Positions 25,287-60,400 of a stretch of DNA of 64,000 nucleotides are shown here, piece by piece. The translations under genes were made by a program, and so were the position numbers. This DNA is from Candidatus Palauibacter sp. (GTDB taxonomy: Bacteria; Gemmatimonadota; Gemmatimonadetes; Palauibacterales; Palauibacteraceae), in the NCBI RefSeq assembly GCF_965221685.1, contig NZ_OZ244907.1. One strand, written 5' to 3'. Numbering within the stretch: the first letter of the stretch is position 1; each line of letters starts with the position of its first letter. The notes under the pieces are model-generated. The model did no database searches and had not been told where the DNA came from. It saw nothing but the letters and a program-made list of their open reading frames with translations.

Positions 25287-25601
25287 TCATGCTCCGCAGT
25301 TCCGCGCGAACCACTCGACGCCTTCGTCGCGAATATGCTCCAGCAGCGTTCTGTCGCGAACCGAGTCGTACAGGATCAGATCGACCGACTGCGCCATCGG
25401 AATCTCTTCGACCGCTGCGGCGAGACGCGCCTGGTCCGTCAACGTCAGCCGGTCACCGAACCGCGCGATGTCCACGTCGGAGGTTGTGGTGTTCGTCCCG
25501 GTCGCCCTGGATCCGAACAGGACGGCTCGTTCCACGCGGCCATTGGCCGCGATCACGGCGATGATCGCCTCGCGGTGCGCGTCCTTGAGGCCATCCGTCA
25601 T
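25287..25601 (-). CDS. Minimal nucleotidyltransferase (MNT; HI0073-like) of a HEPN/MNT toxin-antitoxin pair
   Basis: LFGSRATGTNTTTSDVDIA carries the GSx9-13DxD polymerase-beta-type NTase motif. 4-nt overlap with the upstream HEPN gene. Confidence 0.7.
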   Translation of the reverse strand: MTDGLKDAHREAIIAVIAANGRVERAVLFGSRATGTNTTTSDVDIARFGDRLTLTDQARLAAAVEEIPMAQSVDLILYDSVRDRTLLEHIRDEGVEWFARNCGA

Positions 25602-26011
25602 GGCGATCGCTTGGCGTCCAGAGTCCAGTAGAGCCGCAGCAGGACGGGGTGGTAGCGTTCCTTGATCAGCGCTTCCGCCTCCTCGGCCACATCGAGCACG
25701 TAGGCGTGGCTCAAGAGGTTGCGCTTGTCCAGCGCGTCGAGCAGGGTCTCGCAGTCGCTCTCCCCGATGTAGCCCGCCTCGAAGCTGTTGCGAATCGCCG
25801 CGCGCGGGACCTTCACGTCATGACCGTCATAGAAGAGGAGGTCCTTGAGCACCTTCCAGGACAGCTCGAAGCTGAACTCGAACGTCTTGATCAGCCCAGC
25901 CAGTTCCAGGTAGTCACACCGTTCCCTGTCGCAGGCTTTCGTGAGTTGCGCGAGCACCGTTCCGAAAGTGTCGAGCCGCTGCTGCCAGCGCCGTTCATCC
26001 GAACTGCTCAT
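25598..26011 (-). CDS. HEPN-domain protein (HI0074 / nucleotidyltransferase-substrate-binding family)
   Basis: Conserved Rx4-6H motif RNLLSHAY near the C-terminus. WQQRLDTF...ELAGLIKTFEF pattern of the HI0074 family. Start taken at the second Met (alternative 26047). Confidence 0.65.
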   Translation of the reverse strand: MSSSDERRWQQRLDTFGTVLAQLTKACDRERCDYLELAGLIKTFEFSFELSWKVLKDLLFYDGHDVKVPRAAIRNSFEAGYIGESDCETLLDALDKRNLLSHAYVLDVAEEAEALIKERYHPVLLRLYWTLDAKRSP

Positions 26012-26185
26012 CCTTCCCCGCCTCCGAATCCCGAGGCCGGACGTCATCGTTCGTCATCGCTGTAGGGCAACTCCGGGAGCCGGAGTCGTGAGATAGAATA
26101 AGCCATGTGTCCCACCGCCGTATACCTTGCCGGAGCAGGGGTGCCCAGAGTTGACCGATCGGGCCAGAGTAGCCATTGAGTCCAC

Positions 26186-27351: not shown

Positions 27352-27888
27352 ATGCAGACCGAACCGGTCGAGGCCGCGTTCCTCGGGCCACCGGCTGAGA
27401 TGGCACGATTGCCTCCGGCGGCGATCCAGCACATCGCGGCCAGGTACGGCGGGGACTCCTCGCGCATCTGGGCCGACGGGAGCAGCGGCGCTGCCGTGGC
27501 AAGACGGTTCCTGGCTTTTGACGGTGTTGGCCGGAAGATCGCCAACATGGCCGTGAACATCCTGATTCGCGATTTCCACATCGGACTCACGACGCCCATG
27601 CCCGACATTGCGGTCGACACTCACGTGCTGCGGGTGTTCGAGCGGCTGGGCCTCCTCGACAGGCTCGAACACAGCCAGCTACGCTCGACCAGGGACAAGC
27701 AGGGACTCCGGCTCCAGCTGCGCGCTCGCGAGCTCAGCCCGGAGTGGCCGGGGGAACTCGACTGGCCGGCATGGCACCTCGGGACGAAGTGGTGTCACGC
27801 CGGGCGGGCGCCGGAGTGTGGGGAGTGCTACATGAGGGACGTGTGTCCGAGGGTTGGAGTGGGTTCGAGGTCGACGGCTGGATCGTGA
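27352..27888 (+). CDS. HhH-GPD base-excision-repair family protein with endonuclease III-type [4Fe-4S] cluster loop (short form)
   Basis: Helix-hairpin-helix FDGVGRKIANMAVNIL followed by catalytic-Asp region IAVDTHVLRVFERLGL. C-terminal CHAGRAPECGECYMRDVC is the Cx6Cx2Cx5C EndoIII cluster. N-terminal domain is shorter than canonical Nth. Confidence 0.55.
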   Translation: MQTEPVEAAFLGPPAEMARLPPAAIQHIAARYGGDSSRIWADGSSGAAVARRFLAFDGVGRKIANMAVNILIRDFHIGLTTPMPDIAVDTHVLRVFERLGLLDRLEHSQLRSTRDKQGLRLQLRARELSPEWPGELDWPAWHLGTKWCHAGRAPECGECYMRDVCPRVGVGSRSTAGS

Positions 27889-28260
27889 ACTTGGGCGCAG
27901 TTGCGCGGTCCGTCCGGCGGGCCTGCGTGGCACCCGAGGCAGCGTGAGACCCGGTCTCGGTGAGGCCGCGCGTCACGTGAAGCTACTTCGCAAGGTGTGG
28001 CGGATCGACGAGGGGGCCGGCACGACCTTTTTCATGGACGGCAAGGAGGTGTACTATTGATCACGCACGGTGACCGCTGAGCCCCAGCCGAGACGGACTC
28101 AGCGGCGCTGAAGGATCATGATGTCGGATGAGGGAGGGGGTGGTGATGGTCCGCTTTCGTTCAACTCGCCGTAGCTCCGAATCCGGGGCGACGCCTTTTG
28201 TATTCCCACGAGGGCCCTCGCTCGACCGATTCTCAACAGCCTATGAGATGATACCTACAT

Positions 28261-29787
28261 ATGTCTGACATCCCAGCAAACTCCATCCCGGCCCTGAAGG
28301 TCAACCAATGGCTATCCCACTGGGATGACATCAGTTGGAAACCGGAAGAACACCGATCAAAGCCGCCGCGGTCGTTCTATCAGTTCAACGTTTCCGCTCA
28401 CGTGCTGCGTCGCCTTAGTGGAGTCTATAGGAGAACCACCGACCGAGATCGCGGGACTTCCGATCTGGGCATTCAGCGCCGCCACGAGCCCAAACGATCC
28501 GAGGAAATCGCTCGGTTCGTCAAGTACGGATATCCCTGGTCGGTTCTCAGTGCGACTAAGCGTCAACAACCTGACTTCGCAGACTTGCGCCAACCCGGTT
28601 GGCTTCCGACAGCAATCCTCATCAACATTCTCACCGCTGACGATGAACGCCAGGGTAATGGCGTCGCAAAGGGCGATCTCGTTGAGATCCGCGAAGATGG
28701 CGATATGCACCACGTCGTTCTCCCCCACGGCCTAGATTCAGGGGACTGGGAATACAAGACCGTACCACCAATTGAAGTAATCGACGGACAGCACCGGCTT
28801 TGGGCGTTCGATGACACCGCTCTCAATGGCAGTTTTGAGCTACCTGTTGTTGCGTTCTTTGGCTTAGATCGGAGTTGGCAGGCATACCTGTTCTACACAA
28901 TCAACATAAAGCCAAAGAAGATAAATCCGAGTCTGGCTTTCGACCTCTACCCTTTGCTGCGTACTGCGACTTGGCTCGAGAAACTTGAAGGCCCCAAGGT
29001 GTACCGCGAATCGCGAGCCCAGGAGATTGTAGACATCCTATGGGCTCATCCGGAGAGCCCGTGGTATCGTCGCATCAACATGCTCGGCGAACCCGGGCAC
29101 CGGGGCTTGATGGTGACGCAGGCGGGCTGGATTAGATCTCTCCTGGCGTCCTTTGTGAAGAGGTGGGAAGCGCGCACTGCTCCGGGCGGCCTTTTCGGCA
29201 GTCCAATGGGCAGCCATGAGACGGTTCTCCCGTGGACTCTGGAGCAGCAGGCGGCCTTCCTGATCTTCCTCGGACAGCGGTTGCGTGCGACCGTCGAGGA
29301 GTCCGACGATGAATGGATGTCCGCTCTACGGCAGCGATGGTCTGATCCCGAGGACGAAGGTGATCCAGCGTTCGTTGGGCGCCACAACCTGCTAAATCAA
29401 GACCAGGGCTTACGAGCATTCCTCCAAGTGTCCAACGACGTTTGCTACGTGGCCCCAGAGCACTGGCTACAAGAAGAAGAACTTGTTTCTGTTCCGTCAG
29501 ATCCCGATGAGTCCGATGGCGTGGCCGCCGCCCTGCGACACTTTGAGAAGAACGAGCTGCTTTGCACACACATCGACGAGTTGAGTCAAACTCTCGCGGA
29601 GTTCGACTGGCGATCTTCGGATGCGTCTGACTTGACTCCAGATGAGCATCTGCGGAAGTCCGCTTTTCGGGGCAGCGGTGGATATCGCATGCTTCGCGAG
29701 GAGCTGCTTCGTCACCTCTCCGATGACGAGTCGACTGTCGGGTTGGCTGCCGAGGAGGTTCTCAGAATGCTCGGTGTGGCCGAATGA
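28261..29787 (+). CDS. DGQHR-domain protein (DndB/DpdB-like, ParB/Srx-fold)
   Basis: Exact DGQHR motif in PIEVIDGQHRLWAFDD. 508 aa. Lower-GC gene preceded by an AT-rich intergenic region. First gene of a 3-gene operon (ATGA overlap with the next gene at 29784-29787). Confidence 0.8.
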   Translation: MSDIPANSIPALKVNQWLSHWDDISWKPEEHRSKPPRSFYQFNVSAHVLRRLSGVYRRTTDRDRGTSDLGIQRRHEPKRSEEIARFVKYGYPWSVLSATKRQQPDFADLRQPGWLPTAILINILTADDERQGNGVAKGDLVEIREDGDMHHVVLPHGLDSGDWEYKTVPPIEVIDGQHRLWAFDDTALNGSFELPVVAFFGLDRSWQAYLFYTINIKPKKINPSLAFDLYPLLRTATWLEKLEGPKVYRESRAQEIVDILWAHPESPWYRRINMLGEPGHRGLMVTQAGWIRSLLASFVKRWEARTAPGGLFGSPMGSHETVLPWTLEQQAAFLIFLGQRLRATVEESDDEWMSALRQRWSDPEDEGDPAFVGRHNLLNQDQGLRAFLQVSNDVCYVAPEHWLQEEELVSVPSDPDESDGVAAALRHFEKNELLCTHIDELSQTLAEFDWRSSDASDLTPDEHLRKSAFRGSGGYRMLREELLRHLSDDESTVGLAAEEVLRMLGVAE

Positions 29788-31085
29788 CACCAGTAAATGT
29801 CGGCTCGGCGGATCGACGTTTGGTGCGGGCCGCGATGGAGCGTCTGACGCCGCACCTTGCGGCCGGACAGGGGTTGCCTCCGGGCCACCGCTACGCCGAT
29901 GGCAGGCCCGGGCGCCAGCCGGTCAATGACTCGGCGCTGGCCGAATACATCGCTCTGTCCGCAGTTCAGCATGCGTTCGACGGGTGGGCGTACTGGGGAC
30001 GAGCGGTTGCCGCGGAGATCAGCGGAGATTCCAACGTCGCGAGCCATCTGGGGTACTACGCAGAGCTTCGCGCCGCCAAGGCGATCCTAGCTTCCGAGGG
30101 CATTGGGTTGTTCGCCAACCAAGTGGCTGTCGTGCACGGCAATGGTCGGTGCGTCCTGGAAACAGGGCAAGGCAGTTCTCATAAGGTGCTGTGGGAAGCT
30201 CTCGAGGAATGGAGCAAAGGCAAGGCCCAGGGCATTGTCTTTCGTCTCTTGGGGCCGTTTGGCCACTCGATTTCGGATTGGCTCCAGCACTTTTCCAGAT
30301 CTTCCAACGCGGTCGCTGAAGACTGGTTGCGTGCGTGGGGTCTGGACTTGCAGGAGTTGGCGAAAGGCGAGAGCGGCCGACGCAACGTAGCCAGCTACGA
30401 GCCCAGCGGGTGTCCTCAAACCGAAAGGGAGCAATCGGAGAAGGCGCTCGACCACATCACGAGGTTGTGGCGATCATGCCAGCCGACGGGCACGGGGGTT
30501 AATCTCGCCTTGGACAGGCTGGTCCTTCGGGCTACGCTGGAATCCGTTTTTCAAGCTGGCGATGCTGAGGAGCGATCTGCCAGCGAAGCGCGTGACCAGT
30601 ACTGCGCGAAGGTGCGCCATACGGTGGAGTCTCTCTCCTTGGGACAATCGATCGGCCAGGCAATCCTCAGATTCCTTGATCCGCAGGAGATTCCGGAAGG
30701 CATGGACATCTTCGAGATCGCTAAACGGACGAGCGACGCGCGTACCAGGACGCATGTGACCGAGGTGCTTTCTCGAGCGGTGCTGCTTCTCCGGCTGGCT
30801 ACCGCATGTGCGCATGACTTGCTGGGCGAACTCGGCACCGACCCAAGGGCCGCCACCCAGCACTGGTGGGAGAGTCGACACGTTCGACGTGGCCTTTGGC
30901 CCGTTGGCCATACCTTGGATTCGTTCTCAGACCTCTGGGACGAGGCGGACGAAGCGCTTGACACTTTGGCAAACCAGCCCAATGGAGGGTCTACGTTCGG
31001 ACTTCGGAGCTCGGATTGCGCCAGTTCGGTAGCGACACTTGCGACGGCCGAGCGGATCTTTTTCTGGGGTAGCTTTGCAGCATGA
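29784..31085 (+). CDS. Hypothetical 433-aa protein with no recognisable domain, middle gene of the DGQHR-MTase operon
   Basis: Continuous ORF with coding-like composition. Translationally coupled at both ends (ATGA overlaps at 29784-29787 and 31082-31085). No motifs recognised by eye. Confidence 0.55.
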   Translation: MTPVNVGSADRRLVRAAMERLTPHLAAGQGLPPGHRYADGRPGRQPVNDSALAEYIALSAVQHAFDGWAYWGRAVAAEISGDSNVASHLGYYAELRAAKAILASEGIGLFANQVAVVHGNGRCVLETGQGSSHKVLWEALEEWSKGKAQGIVFRLLGPFGHSISDWLQHFSRSSNAVAEDWLRAWGLDLQELAKGESGRRNVASYEPSGCPQTEREQSEKALDHITRLWRSCQPTGTGVNLALDRLVLRATLESVFQAGDAEERSASEARDQYCAKVRHTVESLSLGQSIGQAILRFLDPQEIPEGMDIFEIAKRTSDARTRTHVTEVLSRAVLLLRLATACAHDLLGELGTDPRAATQHWWESRHVRRGLWPVGHTLDSFSDLWDEADEALDTLANQPNGGSTFGLRSSDCASSVATLATAERIFFWGSFAA

Positions 31086-32233
31086 CGCTACGGAGCATGA
31101 AGTACATGGGCTCCAAGCGAGTGATGCTTGCCAACGGCCTAGGTGACGTGTTGGCCGAGGAGTCGAAGTCGGCAGCTCGGTTTGTCGATCTCTTCTGTGG
31201 TACCGGAGTCGTATCGTGGTTCATGGCGACGAGGAGCGAACTCCCCGTACTGTCCTGCGATCTGCAGAGTTTTGCGACGACCATGGCGGCATCGGTTGTC
31301 AAACGTACGGACAATAGCGGACTGGATCAGGAGATCGATTCTTGGCTGCGTCGTGTCCGTGAAACCCGGGAGGAACGGCCTGGTTGGTCGGAGGCCGCGG
31401 AGCTGGATGGTTCCAAGGTGCCGATTGCCGTTTGGTGGAAGGAGGCCCGCGAGCTATGCGGTGAGGCGGGGTCCGAGGGATGTGGCCTAGTGTGGCGCAA
31501 CTACGGCGGTCATTACTTCAGCCCTACTCAAGCGGCATCCCTGGACGCAATGATGGAGACTTTGCCAGCCGAGGGGAGGGCAAGGGACGTTTGTTTGGCG
31601 GCGACCATAACGACCGCCAGCCAATGTGCGGCGGCGCCGGGCCACACAGCCCAACCCTTCAAGGCCACAACCACCGCTGGGCCCTACCTGCGTGAGGCGT
31701 GGTGCAGGGATCCCCTCTCCCGCGTTCGCGAAGCAGCGGAGATTCTAGTTTCCATGTGCGCGCTTCGGCGAGGAGACACGAAGACGGGCGACGCCAATGA
31801 GATCGCGCGCGAGGTCACGGAAGAGGACCTGGTCTTCGTCGATCCGCCGTACTCCGATGTTCAATACAGCCGGTTCTACCACGTCCTCGAAACGATCGCA
31901 CGTGGCGAGTGCGGCGTGGTGTCCGGTGTCGGAAGGTACCCTCCCTTCACCGAGAGGCCCGCCTCGGACTACAGTCGGGTCAAGGCTTCTGCCACGGCGA
32001 TGGCGAATCTTCTGGAGATTCTTGCCAGCACGGGTGCCGCAGTAGTGGTCACTTTCCCGGAGCAGCAGTGCAGCAACGGCCTCTCTGGGCTGCGCATCGA
32101 GGAAATGGCCAAGCAGCACTTCCAAGTGGTAAAGCGAACGGTTACGTCGAGGTTCAGCACACTGGGTGGCAACACCCGGAATCGGGACGCACGCAGCATC
32201 CGAAACGAACTGATTCTTGTGATGAGGACGTGA
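31082..32233 (+). CDS. Dam-like D12-class N6-adenine DNA methyltransferase (extended, 383 aa)
   Basis: N-terminal KYMGSKR (Dam motif I, Y-x-GSK) and VFVDPPYSDVQYSRFYH (motif IV DPPY). About 100 aa longer than E. coli Dam. Confidence 0.8.
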   Translation: MTLRSMKYMGSKRVMLANGLGDVLAEESKSAARFVDLFCGTGVVSWFMATRSELPVLSCDLQSFATTMAASVVKRTDNSGLDQEIDSWLRRVRETREERPGWSEAAELDGSKVPIAVWWKEARELCGEAGSEGCGLVWRNYGGHYFSPTQAASLDAMMETLPAEGRARDVCLAATITTASQCAAAPGHTAQPFKATTTAGPYLREAWCRDPLSRVREAAEILVSMCALRRGDTKTGDANEIAREVTEEDLVFVDPPYSDVQYSRFYHVLETIARGECGVVSGVGRYPPFTERPASDYSRVKASATAMANLLEILASTGAAVVVTFPEQQCSNGLSGLRIEEMAKQHFQVVKRTVTSRFSTLGGNTRNRDARSIRNELILVMRT

Positions 32234-32427
32234 CGTAAGCCGCATGTAGAGTCCCATCGAGGACTCGTTGCCGATCCGGACGGTCGCGCGTCGAGCGCAC
32301 TCCCTTGCCCCTACTTCCTCAAGGTGTAGCGTAGCGTCGTGGAGCTTGCGCGCAGAGTTACTGCCGCTGGCGAGACGGTCTCCCGCCGACCGCATCCCAT
32401 GATTTGTAGGACGAGGAGAGAAGCCTG

Positions 32428-35205
32428 ATGCGCTTGTCGTGGAACGAGGTGCGCGTGCGCGCCGCGAAGTTCGCTGAGGAATGGCGGGACGCGGCATACG
32501 AGAAGGGCGAGACGCAGAGCTTCTACAACGAGTTCTTCGAGGTGTTCGACGTGCGCCGTCGATCCGTCGCACGCTACGAGGAGCACGTTGCCAAGCTCGA
32601 CGACCGTTCGGGCTTCATCGATTTGTTCTGGCCGGGCGTGCTGATCGTCGAGCAGAAGAGCGCCGGTCGCGATCTCGCTAAAGCGTATGGGCAAGCCGGG
32701 GATTATTTCGACGCGCTGCCAGAACGCGACCGCCCTCGCTACATCCTGGTGAGCGATTTCCAGACCTTCGAGCTTCACGACCTCTCCGAGCGGCGGAAGC
32801 TGGCCTTCCCTCTCGCCGAACTGCCCGCCCATGTCGAGGCGTTCGGCTTCATCCTCGGCGTTCAGCGCCGGACGTTTCGGGACCAAGATCCGGCGAACGT
32901 CGAGGCCGCCGAACTGGTTGGACGCCTCCACGATGCGCTCGAAGCCGCAGGCTACCGAGGCCACGACCTGGAGCGGTTCCTGGTGCGCATTGTCTTCTGC
33001 CTCTTCGCCGACGATACGGGCGTCTTCGAGCCGCGCGACATCCTGTTCGACTTCCTGGAGTCACGCACGCGCGAGGACGGGACCGACCTCGGGGCGATGC
33101 TTGCCCAACTCTTCCAAGTCCTCGATACGCCGGAAGAGGACCGAACGGCGACACTCGATGAGGATTTGGCCCGGTTTCCGTACGTCAATGGCGACCTGTT
33201 CGACGGGCCGCTGCGTATTCCGGCGTTCGACGCGTCCATGCGGGAAAAGCTCCTCGACGCATCCCGGTTCGACTGGTCCAACATCTCGCCTGCCATCTTC
33301 GGAGCGCTCTTTCAGTCGGTCATGGATCCGGCGGAGCGGCGGGCCCAGGGGGCGCACTACACCACCGAAAAGAACATCCTCAAGGTGATCGAGCCGCTGT
33401 TCCTCGATGACTTGCGGGCTGAGTTCGAGCGCCTGAAGCGCCGCAAGGACAGCCGTCGTCGTGCCGATCTGCGACGCTTTCAGGAGAAGCTTGGCAGCAT
33501 GACGTTCTTCGATCCGGCATGCGGGTGTGGCAACTTCCTCATCATCGCCTATCGTGAGCTACGGGAACTGGAGATCGAAGTCCTCAAGGAGATCCATCCC
33601 GACAAACAGCTCGACGTCTTGGCGGAGACGCTGTCGGGCGTGGATGTGGACCAGTTCTACGGAATCGAGTTGGGCGAGTTCCCGGCCCGCATCGCCGAAA
33701 CGGCGCTGTGGATGATGGACCACATCATGAACAACCGGCTGAGTTTGGAGTTCGGTGAGACATACGCCCGAATTCCTCTCACGTCCTCACCCCATATCAC
33801 TCACGGCGACGCGCTGGAGATGGATTGGGCCGAGTTGTTGCCCCGGGAGGAGTGCTCCTTCGTGTTCGGTAATCCGCCGTTCGGGGGCGCGAAGTTCCAG
33901 AGTTCGGCCCAGCGCGCGCAGGTCCAGAGAATCGCCAACCTTGGCGGGACGGGAGGTACGCTCGACTACGTGACCGCGTGGTTCATCAAAGCTGGGGAAT
34001 ACGCGCGTGGAACCCGGATCCGGATCGGATTCGTTGCGACCAATTCTATCACTCAAGGAGAGCAGGTGGCCCAGCTCTGGCCGATTCTCTTCAACCGCTG
34101 CGGGCTCGCGATCGCCTTCGCGCACCGGACTTTTGCGTGGGGCTCGGACGCGCGCGGAAGGGCCCATGTGCATGTGGTCATCATCGGGCTGGACGGCCAG
34201 CACGCAGTGCCGTCGGTGAAGCGGCTGTTCAGCTATCCGGACATCAACGGCGAGCCGGAGGAAACCGAACACGAGGTGCTTTCGCCGTACCTGTTCGACG
34301 CCAGCGGTCTCGCCGACCCCCACCTGACGGTTCGGGAGGAGAGCGCTCCGGTGAACGGGTTGCCGAGGCTAATCATCGGGTCCAAGCCGATCGATGGTGG
34401 CCACTACATCTTCAGAACGGCAGAGAAACGCGCCGAGTTCGTCGCGGCGGAACCGGCGGCGGAGCCGTATGTGCGCCCCTACATCGGCGCGCGCGAATAC
34501 TTGCAGGGTGGCGGCAGGTGGATTCTCGCCTTGCACGATGTCCCGCCGAACGTCTTAGCGGGGATGCCGGTCGCGCGGGAACGGATCGTGGCGGTGCGTG
34601 CGCACCGCGAGGCCAGCCGGAGTGCGTCTACGAGGAGGCTGGCGGAGACCCCCACTCTCTATCATGTCAACGTCATCCCAGACGCGCCCTTCCTCGTCGT
34701 CCCCGAGGTAAGTTCGTAGCGGCGGGAGTACGTTCCGATTGGCTGGCTCGAACCCCCTGTGATCCCGAGCAATAAGCTTCGATTACTCGCCGACGCGAAC
34801 CTCTCGCATTTCGCTGTTCTTACGTCCGCCATGCACATGGCGTGGCTGCGCTACGTGGGTGGGCGCTTGGAGAGCCGCTACAGTTACGGGATCGGCATGG
34901 TATACAACACCTTTCCGATGCCCCCCGCCACATCTGATGTCTCGAAGCTGGAATCCTTAGCTAAGGCCGTAATCGACACTCGCGCCGCCTATCCTGACGC
35001 GACGCTGGCGGATCTCTACGACCCGGACTTGATGCCGCCCGACCTACGCCGCGCACACCAAGCGATTGACCGCGCCGTGGATCGGCTCTATCGCCGGACG
35101 GGATTCGCCTCGGAGCGTGAACGCGCCGAGCATCTCTTCATGCTGTACGAGAAGATGAGCGCTCCCCTAGGCATCGGGATCAAGAAACCGAAGCGTCGGC
35201 GATGA
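32428..35205 (+). pseudogene. MmeI-family Type IIL (Type IIG-like) restriction-modification enzyme gene interrupted by a single in-frame TAG at 34717-34719
   Basis: N-terminus MRLSWNEVRVRAAKFAEEWRD...GFIDLFWPGVLIVEQKSAGRDLAKAYGQAGDYF parallels the MmeI N-terminus. MTase motif I FFDPACGCGNFL and motif IV NPPFGG. C-terminal ORF (34759-35205) ...HMAWLRYVGGRLESRYSYGIGMVYNTFP parallels the MmeI C-terminal domain. Both ORFs share one frame separated only by TAG (…VPEVSS*RREYVPIGW…). Combined length about 925 aa. Confidence 0.75.
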
Positions 35206-35290
35206 GATCTGGACCCGGATCACAGCGCGCGCGTTTGAACGATCGGGGCGAGCCTAACATGACGCCCCGCCCAGAGGACCTAACCAACAA

Positions 35291-35494
35291 GTGAGAGAAC
35301 CGATGACCGAGATCGATACTCTGCTCGACGAAGTACACAAGCCACTTGAGGGTCTGCAAGAATTCGAGGAGGAGGAGTCGATCCAGAAGGAAGACTTGGG
35401 CGAACGACTCGCGTTTACCGACATCGTCGAGCCATTGGTTCCAACCGAGTTGGGAGCGACAACGACTCGCCTGCACCGCCTGTTGAAGGTCTGA
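35291..35494 (+). CDS. Small acidic hypothetical protein (67 aa)
   Basis: MREPMTEIDTLLDEVHKPLEGLQEFEEEESIQKEDLGERLAFTDIVEPL. Sits inside the lower-GC island 40 nt upstream of the 601-aa ORF. Weak call. Confidence 0.3.
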   Translation: MREPMTEIDTLLDEVHKPLEGLQEFEEEESIQKEDLGERLAFTDIVEPLVPTELGATTTRLHRLLKV

Positions 35495-35533
35495 CCGCCG
35501 GATGCTTACGGGGCGAGCAGTGAGGCAAGACAC

Positions 35534-37339
35534 ATGAAGATGACCGAACAGACTAACCGCTCTACGTTCGCCAATGCGCAGATAGAATACGAAGGGTCGT
35601 TCGCGACGCCGCAGCGTAACGTGGTCCAGACCATCTACGTCGACTTGACCGGCAAGCTTTCACGCGAAGCGCTATGCCTAGCCAAGGTCTCCGAGCCCCA
35701 GTTCGAGCTCAGAACGGCGGACACAACTCGTCTCTCGCGGCCAGGCGTCTTCCGGAAGACGGGCGAAGTACTCATTAAGGACGAACAGGAGGGGCGCGCT
35801 CAGACATCGACACGCGAAACGATTGAGGGTCCGACAAGCGCGACAACGGAGTTGGACCGGCGCGTGCGTGCGATCAACGCTGGTCTCCGGCTGTCTGACA
35901 CAAAGCTGACTGTGCGCAGCAGTAGGAGGCAGCAGACGAGGCATACGTCCACGTCAGCATTGACGTTTGGTAAGGACTGGCTCATCTACTGCACTTCGCT
36001 CTGGCCGGCAGCTGACGAAAAGGACGCTTGGCACCGCGCGTTCCCCGGAAACTACACGAGCGTGGTTCGCATCCATCGGCCCACGCAGTTCGCGCAGGCC
36101 TTAGGGTTGGGGGTGTGCGAGCATATCGGCGCGAACGGGAAGCCGTCCTCAATGAAGGCGACCTTTCACGGATTTCAGACAGTCGAGGTGCAGCGCGCAA
36201 TGCAGATCGTGCTGCACGGCCCTGTCCTTTACGTCGACGACCCCTATCGCTGCATCGACGAGGCTGACGACGGATGGGCAAAGACCTGTTCGATGATCTT
36301 CGTGAAGTCGTCCGAATACGCGGCGCAGAAGGAGTACCGATTCGCCATGTTGTCGATCTCCCCGGACGTGGGAGAGGTGTTCGACCTGCCCGTCTCGGGG
36401 ATGCTCAGGGACTGCCTGTTGCCGGTGAACGTACCGCTTGGCGCGGCCAACGGCCCTGTGACGCTGGCCTGCGACGAACGGGAACCCGGCGAGCCGCGCG
36501 AGACGCACCGGGGGTACACTTACCGGCGACGCCGGGTGCGGCGGGAGAGCGGGAGCTGGAGCGATGGCGAGCCGGGCGACGAACGGGCCAGGGAAGAGAT
36601 CATCGAGGAGACAGTAACGTCACCGGAAGAGATCCCGGAGCCATTTCCCGAGGAGGCGGAGCAACCCGACATCATCATGTTTGAGTTGGTCGGGGGTCAA
36701 CTGCGTTTCAATCACCGTGTCTACCGGGACGAAGAGACGCACCGCATACGCATCGAGACGCTGCCGATGAATCCGGTGATCATCGACAATCCAAGTCCGG
36801 GCGGTCTGCCGCACGGACTCGAGGTATCGCCGGAGGACCGATTCGAAGCGCTGGACGGAGGGCCAACGGATCCGAGAATCGTGCTCAACTTATTCATTAA
36901 CCCGAGCACACCGAGGCCGCCGGGGCGCTACGAGGTCCTCGAGCAGTGCAGCCGGTCCGACTTGGAACACGCTTTGGCGTGTTGGCGCTCCCTAGGAGCG
37001 GCGGTGAACCTGCTCGAACACGAGGACCGGGAACGGGCGGCGGCGGCGGCCTGGTACGCTGCCGAGTTCATTGTGGACTTGGTGAGCCAGTTCGGACCCA
37101 TCGTTAAGAGCGTATGCGTGATCCGGGAGTGTGTTGTGGTCGTAGAATTCGAGCGCGCGCCGATTTCTGCGGCTGTAGGTTGGGCGACGTTTTCCGGGAC
37201 CGAGACATACACTCTGTGCATACAGCAGGAGAACGTAGAAGAGATCGTGTACCCCTGTCGCGGGCGAATTGGACGGATGAGACCAAGCATCTACGCGGAA
37301 ACCTTGAAGAAGTATGGCTGGCCACCCAAGACACCTTGA
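35534..37339 (+). CDS. Hypothetical 601-aa protein, no recognisable domain; last gene of the island before the tRNA array
   Basis: Long ORF with lower GC than flanks. No nucleotide-binding, nuclease or integrase motifs recognised by eye. Confidence 0.5.
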   Translation: MKMTEQTNRSTFANAQIEYEGSFATPQRNVVQTIYVDLTGKLSREALCLAKVSEPQFELRTADTTRLSRPGVFRKTGEVLIKDEQEGRAQTSTRETIEGPTSATTELDRRVRAINAGLRLSDTKLTVRSSRRQQTRHTSTSALTFGKDWLIYCTSLWPAADEKDAWHRAFPGNYTSVVRIHRPTQFAQALGLGVCEHIGANGKPSSMKATFHGFQTVEVQRAMQIVLHGPVLYVDDPYRCIDEADDGWAKTCSMIFVKSSEYAAQKEYRFAMLSISPDVGEVFDLPVSGMLRDCLLPVNVPLGAANGPVTLACDEREPGEPRETHRGYTYRRRRVRRESGSWSDGEPGDERAREEIIEETVTSPEEIPEPFPEEAEQPDIIMFELVGGQLRFNHRVYRDEETHRIRIETLPMNPVIIDNPSPGGLPHGLEVSPEDRFEALDGGPTDPRIVLNLFINPSTPRPPGRYEVLEQCSRSDLEHALACWRSLGAAVNLLEHEDRERAAAAAWYAAEFIVDLVSQFGPIVKSVCVIRECVVVVEFERAPISAAVGWATFSGTETYTLCIQQENVEEIVYPCRGRIGRMRPSIYAETLKKYGWPPKTP

Positions 37340-37556
37340 TCCGGGAGGCGAATGGCGCCCGGAGGGGGCGGGGTGCATGGGCGCGTGCCAAGCCGGGGAT
37401 CGCGCCGTCCGTTGACGACTCATCGACGCCAAGGACATCCGTCTTGACTCGGTGGAATAACGGTGTGGATGCTGCCAGCACGAAACACGCAAAGCAGTTG
37501 TAGTGATTGGGGTGCGGTGCTGTTAAGCCTGCCAACACGGCATGTTGACCGGGCCG

Positions 37557-37571
37557 AGGCGCCCGGATTTC
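37557..37571. repeat. Direct repeat of the 3' end of tRNA-Pro(CGG) (ggcgcccggattt), candidate att-site remnant
   Basis: gaggcgcccggatttcg at 37555-37571 versus ggggcgcccggatttga at 37672-37688 (plus-strand complement of the tRNA 3' end), same orientation, about 115 nt apart. Confidence 0.3.
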
Positions 37572-37670
37572 GCTACGACCGCCTTCGGCGGCCCGCGTAA
37601 TCCGGGGGGTGACCTTGGCAGCCCGGGCGGGCGGAACAGTACGCCGAACCTGTTGCCCGGGGAATTTTAG

Positions 37671-37744
37671 TCGGGGCGCCCGGATTTGAACCGGGGACCT
37701 CTGCGTCCCGAACGCAGCGCTCTACCGGACTGAGCCACGCCCCG
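37671..37744 (-). tRNA. tRNA-Pro (anticodon CGG)
   Basis: RC: CGGGGCG/TG/GCTC-AGTCCGGTA-GAGC/G/CTGCG-TTCGGGA-CGCAG/AGGTC/CCCGG-TTCAAAT-CCGGG/CGCCCCG/A. 74 nt. Confidence 0.85.
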
Positions 37745-37818
37745 AGGGGTACTGCGGACCGCGCGTGAAGGCGCGGGGCCGGGGTCGCGCTCGCAAACGG
37801 AGCGGCGAACCGGCTGAG

Positions 37819-37891
37819 AGCGGGTGACCGGATTCGAACCGGCGACCTCAACCTTGGCAAGGTTGCGCTCTACCAACTGAGCTACACCCGC
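37819..37891 (-). tRNA. tRNA-Gly (anticodon GCC)
   Basis: RC: GCGGGTG/TA/GCTC-AGTTGGTA-GAGC/G/CAACC-TTGCCAA-GGTTG/AGGTC/GCCGG-TTCGAAT-CCGGT/CACCCGC/U. Discriminator U73 typical for Gly. Confidence 0.85.
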
Positions 37892-37958
37892 GTGTGCTGC
37901 TCCCTCCAGCTGCCGGCGTGGCCCGCCTGCGAGCCGCGGCCGAGAGGGGTGCTGCCAG

Positions 37959-38030
37959 AGCCACCGGTCGGATTTGAACCGACGACCGCCGCATTACGAA
38001 TGCGGTGCTCTACCCCTGAGCTACGGTGGC
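37959..38030 (-). tRNA. tRNA-Thr (anticodon CGT)
   Basis: RC: GCCACCG/TA/GCTC-AGGGGTA-GAGC/A/CCGCA-TTCGTAA-TGCGG/CGGTC/GTCGG-TTCAAAT-CCGAC/CGGTGGC/U. 72 nt. Confidence 0.85.
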
Positions 38031-38109
38031 GAGCCGTCGGACGCTACCCGGGGCGAACCCGTGCGAGAAGACTCGCGGGGGTGCCGGGGGTGGACGCGAC
38101 GACGGAAAA

Positions 38110-38183
38110 TGGAGCCGGCGGGATTTGAACCCGCGACCTCTTGAGTGCGATTCAAGCGCTCTCCCAAACTGAGCTACGGCCCC
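38110..38183 (-). tRNA. tRNA-Ala (anticodon CGC)
   Basis: RC: GGGGCCG/TA/GCTC-AGTTTGGGA-GAGC/G/CTTGA-ATCGCAC-TCAAG/AGGTC/GCGGG-TTCAAAT-CCCGC/CGGCTCC/A. G3:U70 alanine identity pair present. Confidence 0.85.
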
Positions 38184-38212
38184 TCGCTCGACTCCCTCTT
38201 GTCCTCTGGGGA

Positions 38213-38287
38213 CGGGGCTGACGGGATTTGAACCCGCGACCTCCGGTGTGACAGACCGGCACTCTAACCAGACTGAGCTACAGCCCC
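38213..38287 (-). tRNA. tRNA-Asp (anticodon GTC)
   Basis: RC: GGGGCTG/TA/GCTC-AGTCTGGTTA-GAGT/G/CCGGT-CTGTCAC-ACCGG/AGGTC/GCGGG-TTCAAAT-CCCGT/CAGCCCC/G. Discriminator G73 typical for Asp. Confidence 0.85.
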
Positions 38288-38304
38288 CTGCAGCGGCGTT
38301 TCGA

Positions 38305-38378
<74 letters not shown>

Positions 38379-54485: not shown

Positions 54486-57400
54486 TCAGAAGTTGAAGTC
54501 GAGCGCAAGTCTGAGTCCGAGGTCGGGTTGTTGACCGGGCATTTGGCTGCGCGAACCCTCGAACCCGAGTCTGAGCGTCTGGCCGACTTGGTATCCTGCC
54601 CCGAGCGACCATGCCCGGTCCCCGCCGTGGGCTGACAGCCGGGTATAGCTGTCGAGTGCGCCGCCGCCCGAGGGCGTCTTGAGCGCGTATCCGGCCTCGG
54701 CGTCGAGACGCCATTGTCCGTGCGCGGCGGCCGGCATGCTCCGGAGCGCGTTGCCGTCCATGAGCCCGTGGACGCCGCTCCGGTCGTGGCCCTGGCTGGG
54801 GCTGACCGCGAGGCGGAACCCTTCGCCCTTCGTACCGGGATCGAACGCGAGCCGTAGCGCGGCGCCCCATTCGCGGTGCCGGCCGGACCCGAGCGCGAGC
54901 CTTCCCCTGACGTCGAGGTCGAGCCCGCGGCCCGCATAGCCGACCGAGGCGCCGGTCTCGGCTCCGCCGCCGGTGTCGGCGTCGCCGCCGTCGTATCGGG
55001 CTCCGGCCTCGGTGGCGAGCCTGAGTCCTCCGGCCGTCCACGACGCTTCGAGCAGGGCGCGTGCGCGCGAGGCCATGCCCTCGCGCCGGCCGTCGTCGGC
55101 GCGCATGCCGACGGTGAACGCGTCGCCCTTGAGCGCGAGTCCGAACGCGCCCCGTCGCGCGAGCGGCGCGTTGACGCCGCCTGAGAGCATCCGGAGCGAC
55201 GCGTCGCCGGTGTCCCCTCGGTGGTCGTCGCCACCGACCTCTCCGCCGCCGTAGCCCGCCATGGCCCAGAGCCCGATCCCGGCGGAAGGCTGGACGAACA
55301 GATAGGGATGCACGCTGTTCATGGCGTGTCCGAGCGATCCGTCCACGGACCGGTGGCCGTAATCGAGGTCGCCGTCGCTCCGCATGAGCGAGACTCCGAA
55401 CAGCGTGGACGAACCGATGCGGGCGTCGGCTCCGACGGTGAGCGCGCGCAGGCCGCCGTCGTATTCGACGCCCGGCTCGCCGCGGAACGATTGGGCGGAG
55501 CCTTCGGCCCAGAGCCCGAACCGTGGCAGCCCTTGGGTGGACTGCGGCCCGAGTCCGGTGGCGAACGAGACGCTCGGCAGCAGGCGGGCGGCGGCCTCGC
55601 GCCCCGTGGGCAGTTCGGGCGACCCGGAGCGGCGTCCGGTCTCGGCGGCCGAGGACGGGTTGAGCGAAACGCCCGCGAGCGAGGCGAGCGTTCCCGCGGC
55701 GCGGCCGGCCCAACCGGAGGGCGATCCGGACGCGGCGGAGCCGTCCGGCGAGGGCCGCATGACGGCGTCGATGCGCGCGCCGACTGCCTGTCGCGCACCC
55801 TCGGCCACCGCGCGTCCGAAGACGGCGAGGCCGACATCGAAGGCCTCGTCCCGGAGCGCGCCGTCGTCGCGCGCCGCGATCCGGACCGTGGCGGAGGCGG
55901 CCGTGCCCGCACTGACGGCTTCGGGCAGCGTGCCGAACCCGAGCGCCAGGAGGCCGGACGGAGGCTCGGCCGGGATGTCGAGCGTGAACGCCGCGAGCGA
56001 GTCGCCGGGCTGGAAGACGACCGGCTCCGAGACTATGGGCGCGGTCATCCCCCGGTCCATGACCGCCGTGAGAGGCACGGCCACCCGCCGGTCGGCCGCG
56101 GGACTGATCCGCAGCGTGACTTCGGTCCCCCGCGCTCCGGCCGTTGCGGTGTACGTCGCTGCGGCAAACTCGACTTCGAGTTCGGTGGGCGCGCCGTCGA
56201 CGGCCACCGCGGCGGCGGCCCTGTCGCCCGCAACCGCCGCGACGACGACTCGCGTGGTCGCAGGCACTCCCACCGCAACGCCATCGGGCAGGTCGCCGAA
56301 CCGGACCTCGACGGTGTCGGACGCCGAGAGTCCCGCCGTGCCGACCGCGACGTTTGCCGTGCCCGCTCCGGCTTGGAACGTGACGGTGTGCTTGGCGTCG
56401 CCCGCAACGACCTCGATCGAGAGCGCCGCCGAGCCCGCCGGAGACAGGAGCACCGCGACATCGACCGATGCGCCTTGGGTGGCGGTGTAGGAGTCCGCGC
56501 CGAAGGAGACCACCGGCGTGTCGGCTCCGACGACCGCCACCGCCGCGCTCTCGGCCCGCTTGCCGGGTCCGTGGCCGTCGGCGTAGGTGAACACGGCGCG
56601 CAGATGATTGCCCCGATCCGCCGCGACCGGCGTGTAGAACCGGGTTCTCGCGCCCGCGATGTTCGTCCACGACGCGCCGCCGTCGCCCGAGCGCTGCCAG
56701 CGCCTAGTCTTGCCCGCCTCCTTCGAGCCGTCCTGGTCCATGAGCGTCGCGGCCAGCCGCTCGCCCACCCGCGCCACGTCCGCGCTCAGCGCGATCTTGC
56801 CCGGATCGTCCGCGTTCGTGACCCGGATCCTGACCGAGGCGGTGTCGGCAAGCTCGCCGTCGCTCGCCTCGACCTTGACGGTGTACAACGTTGTCCCGCT
56901 CTCGAAGTCCAGCACCGTGCCCTCGGCCACCGTGATCTGGCCCGTCGAGCCGTCGATATCGAACAGCGCCTCGTCCCCGCCGGGCACGAAGGCGTAGGAA
57001 AGCGACGCGCCGTCGTCCGGATCGGTCGCCGCCACCGGCGCGCCGACCGCCGTGCCGCCCGGCGAGTTCTCCGGCACCTCGCGGTCGTGCGCCGCGGGGA
57101 ACTTCGGCGCCGTGTTCGCGGGCAGCACCTCGACCGCCTCGCTCGACGCCCGCTTGCCCCGCCCGTGGCCGTCGTCGTAGGTGAACACCGCGCGCAGCCA
57201 CCGGCCCTCATCGTTCGTGCCGGGCGTGTACTTGCGGCCCGATGCAATGTCGTTCCAGGAGTTGCCGTCGCGCGACCGCTGCCACTTGCGCGTCCTGCCC
57301 GCGCTCAGCGCGCCGTCCTCGTCGGTCAGCATGGCGGTCAACTCGACGCCCACGCGCGCCACCGCGGGGCTCAGCGTCACCACGCCCGGATCGTCCGCGT

Positions 57401-60400
57401 CGGTCACTCGGATCGTCACCGAGGCGGTGTCGGCCAATTCGCCGTCGCTCGCCTCGACCCCGACCACATAGAGCGTGTCGCCGCTCTCGTAGTTCAGCAC
57501 CGCGCCGTCGGCCACCGTGATCTGGCCCGTCGCCGCGTCGATCCCGAAAAGCCCGTCCTCGTTCCCGGAGGCCAGGCTGTAGGACGGCGGCGTGCCGTCC
57601 GGGTCGGTCGCCGCCACTGGCGCGCCGACGGCCGTGCCGCCCGGCGAGTTCTCCGGCACCTCGCGCTCGTACACGGCGGGGAACTTGGGCGCCGCGTTCG
57701 CGGGCAGCACCTTGACCGCGTCGCTCGACGCCCGCTTGTTCGGCCCGTGGCGGTCGGCGTACGTGAAGACCATGCGCAGCCACCGGCCCTCGTCGGCGGT
57801 CACGGGGTTGTACATCCGGCCCGTGCCGATGTCGTTCCACGAGTTGCCGTCGCGCGACCGCTGCCACTTCCGCGTCCTGCCCGCGCTCTTCACGCCGTCC
57901 TCGTCGGCCAGCATCGCGGTCAGCTCGACGCCCACGCGCGCCACCGCGGGGCTCAGCGTGACCACGCCCGGATCGTCCGCGTTCGTCACGCGGATCGTGA
58001 CCGACGTAGTGTCGGCAAGTTCGCCGTCGCTCGCGGAGACATTGACCGTGTAGAGCGTGTCCGCGCTCTCGTAGTTCAGCGCCGTGCCCCCGGCCACCGC
58101 GATCCGGGCCGTCGCCGCGTCGATCTCGAACAGGGTTGCGTCTCCGCCGGTCGTGAAGCTGTAGGCCAGATCGTCCGCGTCCGCGTCGGTGGCCGTCACG
58201 GGCGCGCCCACCGCCGTGCCGGCCGCCGAGTTCTCCGGCACCTCGCGCTCGTAGGCGTCCGCGCCGAACGCCGGTGCCCGGTTGGCCGCCTCCGTCGTCC
58301 CCTCGCCGGACTCCGACCACTCGCCCGCGCCCTCCGAACTCTCGGCGCGCACCTGCACGAAGTACGCCGGGCCCGCGTCGAGCCCGGTGATCTTGTGGGC
58401 CAGCGCCGCTCCCAGCCCCGACACGTCGGTCCAATCGTTGTCCTGGTTCGCGCGGTAGCGAAGGTCGTAGTTCGTGATCGCGGGTCCCTCGTTGGACGGC
58501 GCGCTCCACGACACCGACACCTCGCCCTCGCCGCCCGTCACCGTCGGCGCGTCCGGCTTGCCCGGCGCGGGAACGTCCGTCAGCCGGATCTTCACCTCGG
58601 TCGCATCCACAAGCTGCCCGTCACTCGCCTGGAGATGGACCGTGTACACGTTCTTCCCGCCCTCGAAGTCGAGCGCCGCACCGGCGGCCACCGTGATCTG
58701 GCCGCTCTCCTCTTCGATCGCGAAGGAGGTCTCGTCTCCACTGGGGATGAAGGCGTAGGTCAGGTCGTCACCGTCTTCGTCGGTGGCCGTCACGGGCTCG
58801 CCAACCGGCGTGCCGGGCGCCGAGTTCTCCGCGACCTCGCGCTCGTGAATGTGCGAGCCGAACGCCGGCGCGTGGTTGACCGCGTCCTCCGTCGTCCCTT
58901 CGCCGGACTTCGACCACTTGCCCGCGCCCTCCGAACTCTCCGCGCGCACCTGCACGAAGTACGCCGTTCCCGCATCGAGTCCCGTGATCTTATGGACCGA
59001 CACGGCTCCCAGCGCCGCAAGCTTCGTCCACTCGTTGTCCTGGTTCGCACGGTAGCGCAGGTCGTAGCTCGTGATCGCGGGTCCCTCGTTGGGCGGCGCG
59101 CTCCACGACACCGACACCTCGCCCTCACCGCCCGTCACAGTCGGCGCGTCCGGCCGACCCGGCGCGGGAACATCCGTCAGCCGGATCGTCACCGACGCCC
59201 GGTCCGCGAGCGTGCCGTCGCTCGCCTCGACATGGACCGTGTAGACCTTCTTTTCGCTCTCGTAGTCGAGCGCCGCGCCCTCGGCCACCGTGATCCGGCC
59301 GCTCCTCGCGTCGATCTCGAAGGAGGCTTCGTCGCTGCCCGCGATGAAGGCGTACTCTAAATCGTCCCCGTCCTTGTCGGTGGCCGTCACGGGCTCGCCC
59401 ACCGCCGTGCCGGCCGCCGAGTTTTCGGGCACCTCGCGCTCGTAGGCGTCCGCGCCGAACACCGGCGCATGGTTGGACGCCTCCGTCGTCCCCTCGCCGG
59501 ACTCCGACCACTCGCCCGCGCCCTCCGAACTCTCCGCGCGCACCTGCACCGAGTACGTTGTGCCCGCATCGAGTCCGGTGATCGTTTGGGCCAGCACCGC
59601 GCCCAGCGCCGCCACGTCCGTCCACTCGTTGTCCGGGTTCGCACGGTAGCGCAAGTAGTAGCTCGTGATCGCCGGTCCCTCGTTCGACGGCGCGCTCCAC
59701 GACACCGACACCTGTTCCGTTCCGCCCGTCACCACCGGCGCGTCCGGCCTGCCCGGAGCCGGGACGTCCGTCACCCGGATCGTCACCTCGACCCTGGCCG
59801 CCAGCTTCCCGTCGCTCGCCTCGACATGGACCGTGTAGACCTTCTTCTCGCTCTCGTAGTCGAACGCAGCACCGGCGGCCACCGTGATCTGGCCGCTCGT
59901 CTCGTCGATCTCGAACAGCGCCTCGTCCCCGCCCGCCACGAACGCGTGCGTCACCGCGTCGCCGTCCGCGTCCGATGCCGCCACCGGATCGCCCACCGCC
60001 GTGCCGGCCGCCGAGTTCTCCGCCACCTCGCGCTCGAATCCGTCCGCCCCGAACGACGGCGCGCCGTTCGTCACCGTCAACCCGAAATACTGCTTCGCGC
60101 TTCCGCCGTGCCCGTCGCTCGCCAGCACATCGACACGGGTGCTTCCCTTCTTCACGCCCGTCACCGTCAACTCCGCGCCCTCGACCGAAAAGCTCGCGAA
60201 CCCCTTGGAAACTGCGGTCGCCGTGTATGTAAGCTTGTCCAGGTCGAAGTCCCGGAAATATTCCGCCAGCCCCACCTTGAAGCTCTCGCCCCGCGCGACC
60301 GTCCGATCCTTGATCCCACCGAGGCTGATAGGCTCCCGGTTCGGAACCTCGACCTCGAACTCCTGCTCGGCCGTCCCGCCGTATCCGTCGTCCGCCGTCA

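Follow-up and report, generated by a model that had tools for sequence, protein, structure and literature searches.

The window analysed here, a 64,000-nucleotide stretch of contig NZ_OZ244907.1 from Candidatus Palauibacter sp. (assembly GCF_965221685.1), carries on its plus strand, at 32428-35205, a gene that by sequence comparison belongs to the MmeI family of Type IIL restriction-modification enzymes and that is divided by an in-frame stop codon. A single frame of 925 sense codons (926 codons including the terminal stop) runs through the locus. Its one internal stop is the amber codon TAG at 34717-34719, codon 764, in the context GAG GTA AGT TCG TAG CGG CGG GAG TAC. Two open reading frames (ORFs) are thus found in the same frame, one of 763 amino acids with an ATG start (32428..34719) and one of 148 amino acids with a GTG start (34759..35205). 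The features of the gene, including the two parts of its target recognition domain (TRD), are as follows.

32413..32418, plus strand: Shine-Dalgarno-like GAGGAG, read from the sequence, 9 nt 5' of the ATG at 32428
32428..34716, plus strand: 5' part of the MmeI-family gene, codons 1-763, from Pfam, alignment to PDB 5hr4, PADLOC and motifs
34717..34719, plus strand: premature amber TAG, codon 764, the equivalent of MmeI Glu755, from the sequence and its translation
34720..34926, plus strand: rest of the target recognition domain (TRD-C), in frame and outside the 763-residue product, from Pfam MmeI_TRD 138-206
34936..35163, plus strand: MmeI C-terminal helical bundle, in frame 3' of the stop, from Pfam MmeI_C (3.7e-27)
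35203..35205, plus strand: native stop of the ancestral 925-codon gene, from the ORF listing and translation; homologs have 924-938 amino acids

Translation of 32428-35205 gives no second stop or frameshift, and it confirms the original prediction, made from the letters of the DNA, that the 763- and 148-residue ORFs share a frame and are split by TAG 34717-34719 alone. The coordinates, motifs and local peptide in that prediction were also right, with FFDPACGCGNFL, NPPFGG and HMAWLRYVGGRLESRYSYG...VYNTFP all found. Its description of the region after the stop as the C-terminal domain is correct in that MmeI_C is located there, but the region also holds the final third of the TRD. The GAGGAG upstream of ATG 32428 suggests that the translation start is still working. 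Promoter and terminator scans were uninformative.

When the frame is read through the TAG, all five MmeI Pfam domains are present. Before the stop are MmeI_N (E = 1e-45, residues 11-173), MmeI_hel (E = 2e-25, residues 179-258), which is the helical spacer between nuclease and methyltransferase, and MmeI_Mtase (E = 1.5e-84, residues 343-601), and after it is MmeI_C. The 207-position MmeI_TRD profile is matched on both sides, with positions 3-136 before the stop (residues 631-763) and positions 138-206 after it, so the stop occupies profile position 137. With a Glu put in at the stop, the protein aligns to the crystallised MmeI of Methylophilus methylotrophus (PDB 5HR4) over residues 1-914 of 925 (E = 3.6e-269). 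The two proteins are collinear, with the same five domains and conserved PD-ExK nuclease and methyltransferase motifs I and IV. The nuclease residues D65...E75-Q-K77 are intact and correspond column for column to the MmeI segment FVDLFWPGILLIEMKS, and the gamma-class N6-adenine methyltransferase motifs are intact as motif I FFDPACGCGNFL and motif IV NPPF (GNPPFGG).

The architecture of a gamma-class methyltransferase plus a TRD is held in common with the single-polypeptide Type IIG restriction-modification enzymes, such as BpuSI, and with PglX of BREX. However, PglX and the other IIG models in PADLOC and NCBIfam match much more weakly (E = 1e-3 to 1e-74) than the MmeI-type PADLOC model REase_MTase_IIG (2.4e-285), and no BREX partner genes are near the gene in the window. 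On these comparisons the gene is a member of the MmeI family by descent, and its ancestral 925-residue protein combined intact PD-ExK and gamma-class methyltransferase motifs with a TRD and the C-terminal bundle. The 763-residue product does not have TRD-N, TRD-C and the bundle on one polypeptide, although the coding sequence for them is conserved. Enzymes of the family characteristically methylate a single strand of an asymmetric site and cleave about 20/18 nt away from it.

The position of the stop within the TRD can be interpreted from the MmeI-DNA structure (PMC4833311). In MmeI, TRD-N (residues 621-745) touches base pairs 1-2 of the target, and TRD-C (746-825) touches base pairs 3-6 via E751, T752, N773, L805, E806, R808 and R810. 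TRD-C gives most of the base contacts and a clamp on the DNA, it is followed by the C-terminal helical bundle (826-919), and the one recognition domain serves both the nuclease and the methyltransferase (PMC4833311). Codon 764 aligns to MmeI Glu755, four residues past the equivalent of Glu751, at the start of TRD-C. The earlier reading that the stop stands for a Glu, aligned with that of MmeI ...PETSSENRQFIPIGF, is borne out by this alignment. In the 763-residue product, TRD-N is retained together with some 18 residues of TRD-C. Missing from it are the entire bundle and the equivalents of MmeI N773, A774, L805, E806, R808 and R810, which in the window frame are N782, K783, L814, E815, R817 and S819. 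By analogy with MmeI, a product without the residues reading base pairs 3-6 and without the bundle would neither clamp the DNA nor recognise a site. Cleavage and methylation would be lost jointly, since one recognition domain directs both. Such a loss would be tolerated because both functions share one polypeptide and one recognition domain, such that no unprotected restriction activity would remain.

For the ancestral enzyme, part of the target can be predicted from engineered MmeI, in which A774K/R810S specifies C at position 4, with E806/R808 for C at position 6 and E751/N773 for C at position 3 (PMC2731914). The equivalents of E806 and R808 are identical in the window gene (E815/R817), whereas its position-4 residues are K783/S819 in place of A774/R810, and the residues for positions 1 and 2 also differ from those of MmeI (I650, S732, H746, V747). 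The ancestral enzyme is therefore predicted to have read ...CCAC at target positions 3-6 (E760/N782, K783/S819, E815/R817), and, given the differing specificity residues, its target would be expected to differ from that of MmeI.

The Glu that is replaced by the stop is invariant in the family. It is present at this column in all 119 BLASTP alignments and in 118 of 118 full-length homologs aligned with MAFFT. The codon found there in related loci is GAG in 37 and GAA in 35, hence a single G-to-T change from GAG accounts for the TAG. TAG is also an ordinary stop in this genome segment, as had been proposed from two genes with ends at 4128 (minus strand) and 8432. Both end in TAG, as do 8 others, making 10 of the 31 other probable genes in the window. 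The next base is C in 6 of the 10, as it is here, and TAG-C is the commonest context of the genuine TAG stops of the window.

The original prediction had also allowed for a phase-variable or suppressed stop, and no support for either was found. Bypass or compensation of the stop, with the enzyme still being made, could take the form of suppression or readthrough, of phase-variable reversion, or of the 148-residue ORF reassembling with the 763-residue fragment. As would suit such an arrangement, the sequence 3' of the stop has kept its frame without decay, and an in-frame GTG is present at 34759. However, none of the 7 tRNAs of the window has a CUA anticodon, which, with TAG being a common terminator in the window, led to suppression and recoding being rejected. 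Readthrough faces the further difficulty that a misread residue in place of an invariant Glu might itself impair function. Phase variation was rejected since neither a simple repeat nor an invertible segment lies at codon 764 or close to it. TRF identifies just a 2-copy 12-mer at 34444-34467, which is far away, and such inverted repeats as exist are short and imperfect, with wide spacing. Restart or split-protein expression was likewise rejected, as there is no Shine-Dalgarno-like sequence before GTG 34759 or the later in-frame starts, in contrast to the GAGGAG in front of the true start. Moreover, such a split would cut through a folded subdomain, and the ORF starting at GTG would be without residues 765-777. 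None of the approximately 118 full-length homologs has a stop at codon 764. Continued production of the enzyme by any of these routes is very improbable.

There is little sign of age in the lesion. Compared with ten intact relatives, the ratio of nonsynonymous to synonymous substitution rates (dN/dS) is 0.05-0.18 after the stop and 0.06-0.14 before it. In the MAFFT alignment of the 118 homologs, the window gene deviates at 3 of the 407 near-invariant family columns that precede the stop and at 1 of the 71 that follow it. The gene shows no decay after the stop, which on these sequence comparisons makes the nonsense mutation a recent one, on the scale that they resolve. The absence of decay also bears on whether the truncated 763-residue protein, with its nuclease, spacer, methyltransferase and TRD-N, has been kept because of some new role, such as relaxed-specificity methylation or nuclease activity. 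In favour of this, neither the catalytic motifs nor the good ribosome-binding site has been damaged. A dispensable 3' region would however be expected to decay, and its preservation indicates a recent event and not a maintained truncation. In MmeI, TRD-C supplies most of the base contacts and the DNA clamp (PMC4833311), and, bar the sequence itself, no family member of about 760 residues is among the best 120 hits. A new role for the truncated protein is very improbable.

Disruption of genes of this family is seen elsewhere. Two sets of loci were collected, a genome set of 80 related loci from reference genomes with residues 1-763 as the query, so that frameshifts and insertions farther upstream go unseen, and an independent metagenome set of 80 loci with the C-terminal 161 residues as the query. 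In the genome set, 69 of 80 are intact and 9 (~11%) are disrupted. Nonsense codons account for five of these: W551* (L011), W571* (L048), W518* (L058), R889* (L024), and E159* together with R647* (L062). One locus has a 1-base deletion, AAGGTT to AAGTT, at about residue 760 (L047, ~12307). Another has an IS21-type IstA/IstB insertion between residues 758 and 759 with a GTCATC duplication (L012, 12271-15007), and a third has a 6.4-kb IS256/IS66-type insertion at about residues 753/754 with a CGACCGCT duplication (L031, 12277-18698). In L004 unrelated sequence replaces the gene after residue 814 (after 12439).

In the metagenome set, which contains more distant relatives, 46 of 80 are intact, 13 run off the end of their contig, and at least 12 of the other 21 have stops or frameshifts. 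With about 58 genes evaluable, these 12 or more amount to a disruption rate of at least ~20%. The lesions are scattered, at residues 30, 55, 162, 306, 375, 380, 454, 495, 501, 528, 560, 579, 619, 693-695 and 740. The three independent lesions of L012, L031 and L047 in the genome set, none of them nonsense codons, are no more than about 10 codons away from codon 764, and a hotspot at the boundary of TRD-N and TRD-C was considered for this reason. It was rejected because the query of residues 1-763 hides lesions farther upstream in the genome set and the independent C-terminal set showed scatter. There is no clear event at residues 753-764 in the metagenome set, where one match (L093) begins at residue 758, 123 nt inside a short contig. 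The clustering is probably due to ascertainment and chance.

There is a published precedent for single lesions of this type. NmeAIII (TAG at codon 32), DraRI (TAA replacing GAA at codon 841) and ApyPI (a frameshift) are disrupted in their native hosts (PMC2731913). Morgan et al. 2009 (NAR 37:5208) re-sequenced the lesions and found them to be real, and repair of the single lesion in each gene gave active enzymes. In natural populations, on their proposal, active forms exist alongside inactive ones that are readily repaired (PMC2731913). Like the window gene, these are full-length MmeI-family genes with a single lesion and no other degeneration, and in DraRI, too, a Glu codon has become a stop through a first-base G-to-T change. 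They differ in that the window host is a marine or sponge-type member of the Gemmatimonadota and its stop is at the start of TRD-C, and in that the lesions of DraRI, NmeAIII and ApyPI have been proven real and repaired, whereas the window gene is known from assembly sequence. Disruption by a single codon is an already documented and ordinary fate for MmeI-family genes, of which the window gene is a further instance.

These cases are also relevant to the possibility that the TAG arose as an error of the assembly or its consensus, or is a minority variant that the consensus has fixed, with the organism itself having GAG and an active enzyme. The perfect preservation of the rest of the gene is what an error would also give. 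In addition, the sequence apparently comes from a single assembly, with no independent copy found by exact look-ups of the 763-residue product and the neighbouring methyltransferase or by the metagenome pattern scan. On the other side, stops are just 3.2% of the possible single-base substitutions in the gene, so an error would have to hit this gene and that small class. Real disruptions are found in ~10-20% of family members, the published cases of the same kind were confirmed by re-sequencing (PMC2731913), and the very long ORFs of the window (3165, 1238 and 1217 residues) are intact, which argues for a low error rate. Assembly error is unlikely as the source of the TAG.

Several points weigh against a recent and genuine inactivation. 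The undecayed signature would be identical after an assembly error. The sole exact copy of the 763-residue product in the protein collection (P0062, one member) is presumably from the same assembly, and a scan of metagenome contigs with the exact DNA pattern, with NNN at codon 764, gave no match. The closest intact relative among the best 120 hits is 89% identical, and because of this distance the term 'recent' is resolved only coarsely. The loss of both activities is read across from the structure of MmeI.

The remaining part of the argument concerns the origin of the gene, which is in a stretch of distinct composition.

28000..37600, no strand assigned: lower-GC stretch (~0.56-0.65, against 0.65-0.73 in the flanks) that holds the gene and abuts a six-tRNA array, from the composition profile

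The six-tRNA array is at 37670-38378 on the minus strand. Nucleotide similarity to all relatives is limited to the ORF, 32415-35213, and homologs of ten neighbouring proteins are beside none of the 80 related genome loci. Given the GC dip, the restriction of similarity to the ORF, the lack of shared neighbours and the relatives at 72-87% identity in many phyla, the low-GC stretch is probably horizontally acquired DNA. A solitary MmeI-family gene needs no companion methyltransferase, and the absence of shared neighbours fits self-sufficient Type IIL genes. The adenosylhomocysteinase of the host shares 92-97% identity with proteins from Candidatus Palauibacter and related metagenome-assembled genomes. 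The Candidatus Palauibacter group is marine and sponge-associated (PMC10469786).

It is thus probable that the window contains a horizontally acquired, solitary Type IIL gene of a Candidatus Palauibacter group genome that was recently inactivated by a change of GAG (Glu) to TAG at codon 764. The fresh nonsense inactivation first proposed from the sequence is supported by the family membership, the invariant Glu, the GAG or GAA in relatives, the ordinary use of TAG as a stop and the lack of decay. A single reversion would probably reactivate the enzyme, as experimental repair did for NmeAIII and DraRI.

Other genes are found in and around the low-GC stretch. At 28261-32233 on the plus strand there are three genes with overlapping stop and start codons at 29784-29787 and 31082-31085. 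The first encodes a 508-residue DGQHR-domain protein (TIGR03187, 2.3e-20) with weak matches to DndB/DpdB, the second a 433-residue protein with no match in Pfam, PADLOC or NCBIfam, and the third a 383-residue D12-class adenine methyltransferase-like protein in which the DPPY motif is present. This cluster is possibly a modification or defence module of an uncharacterised kind. A functional link of the MmeI gene to it was rejected, as the two do not co-occur in the 80 related loci. The suggestion that the neighbouring methyltransferase cluster might compensate for the lost enzyme is unsupported on the same ground, with homologs of the neighbours at 0 of 80 related genome loci, and no compensation would be needed because the lost restriction-modification enzyme is a single polypeptide.

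Between the MmeI pseudogene and the tRNA array is a 601-residue ORF (35534-37339, plus strand) with no Pfam, PADLOC or NCBIfam match. A 16-nt copy (15/16) of the 3' end of tRNA-Pro(CGG) is present at 37555-37570, matching 37672-37687, 117 nt beyond the tRNA on the island side. It may be the scar of an integration event at that tRNA; the examined parts of the island yielded no integrase. The low-GC stretch is also bracketed by a weak 18-nt repeat (27793-27810 and 37616-37633), which is GC-rich and possibly due to chance. Just upstream of the stretch, at 25598-26047 on the minus strand, is a gene for a 149-residue protein with a match to the HI0074 family nucleotidyltransferase substrate-binding subunit (TIGR01987, 1.3e-17), a toxin-antitoxin-type component that fits a defence-gene neighbourhood. 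The 3165-residue ORF at 54486-63983 on the minus strand extends to near the window end and lies in a region where the GC skew is strongly negative (-0.18 to -0.24).

The MmeI lineage to which the gene belongs is widely spread. It is found at 72-87% protein identity in metagenome-assembled genomes labelled as many phyla (L001-L080; window 32415-35213). The labels include Gemmatimonadota, Alpha- and Gammaproteobacteria, Binatia, Rhodothermales, Cyanobacteria including Candidatus Synechococcus spongiarum, Nitrospirales, Chloroflexota, Acidobacteriota, Thermodesulfobacteriota, Latescibacterota and Candidatus Poriferihabitaceae. Many of the names suggest sponge symbionts, and several genomes have two copies of the lineage. 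JGI-type metagenome loci are more distant, with 58-73% identity in the C-terminal part. From the sequences, this looks like the community-wide horizontal spread of one restriction gene.

The 118 homologs differ from one another chiefly at the published MmeI specificity positions (codons 650, 653, 732, 746, 760, 782, 783, 815, 817 and 819), and the residues that read a given base vary with matching counts. For target position 6 there are 14 E and 104 K, paired with 14 R and 104 D, and for position 4 there are 62 L and 56 K, paired with 62 R and 56 M, S or Q. Position 3 varies between E, Q and K with N, E and D, position 2 between K and Q with I, S and T, and position 1 between S and R with H, N and G. 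Such covariation suggests that several target specificities exist inside one recently spread lineage.

It could be proposed that the amber allele is one state of a standing on/off polymorphism, a repairable reserve copy in the symbiont population. The switch back would be made by a single back-mutation or by recombination with near-identical paralogs in the same community. This proposal draws on the undecayed gene and on the ~10-20% of relatives that are similarly disrupted, nothing beyond these, and is improbable. If true, the lineage would be a community-level pool of swappable restriction specificities across many phyla.

For the genome itself, a recent nonsense inactivation has little significance beyond annotation. 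The locus should be annotated as one Type IIL restriction-modification pseudogene, not as two genes, and the host would not be expected to show a matching N6-methyladenine motif or restriction barrier. Conversion of the TAG to GAG would probably give an active enzyme, possibly with a new specificity (predicted ...CCAC at positions 3-6). The existence of the lineage across phyla, with variation at its specificity residues, is more interesting than the stop codon itself.

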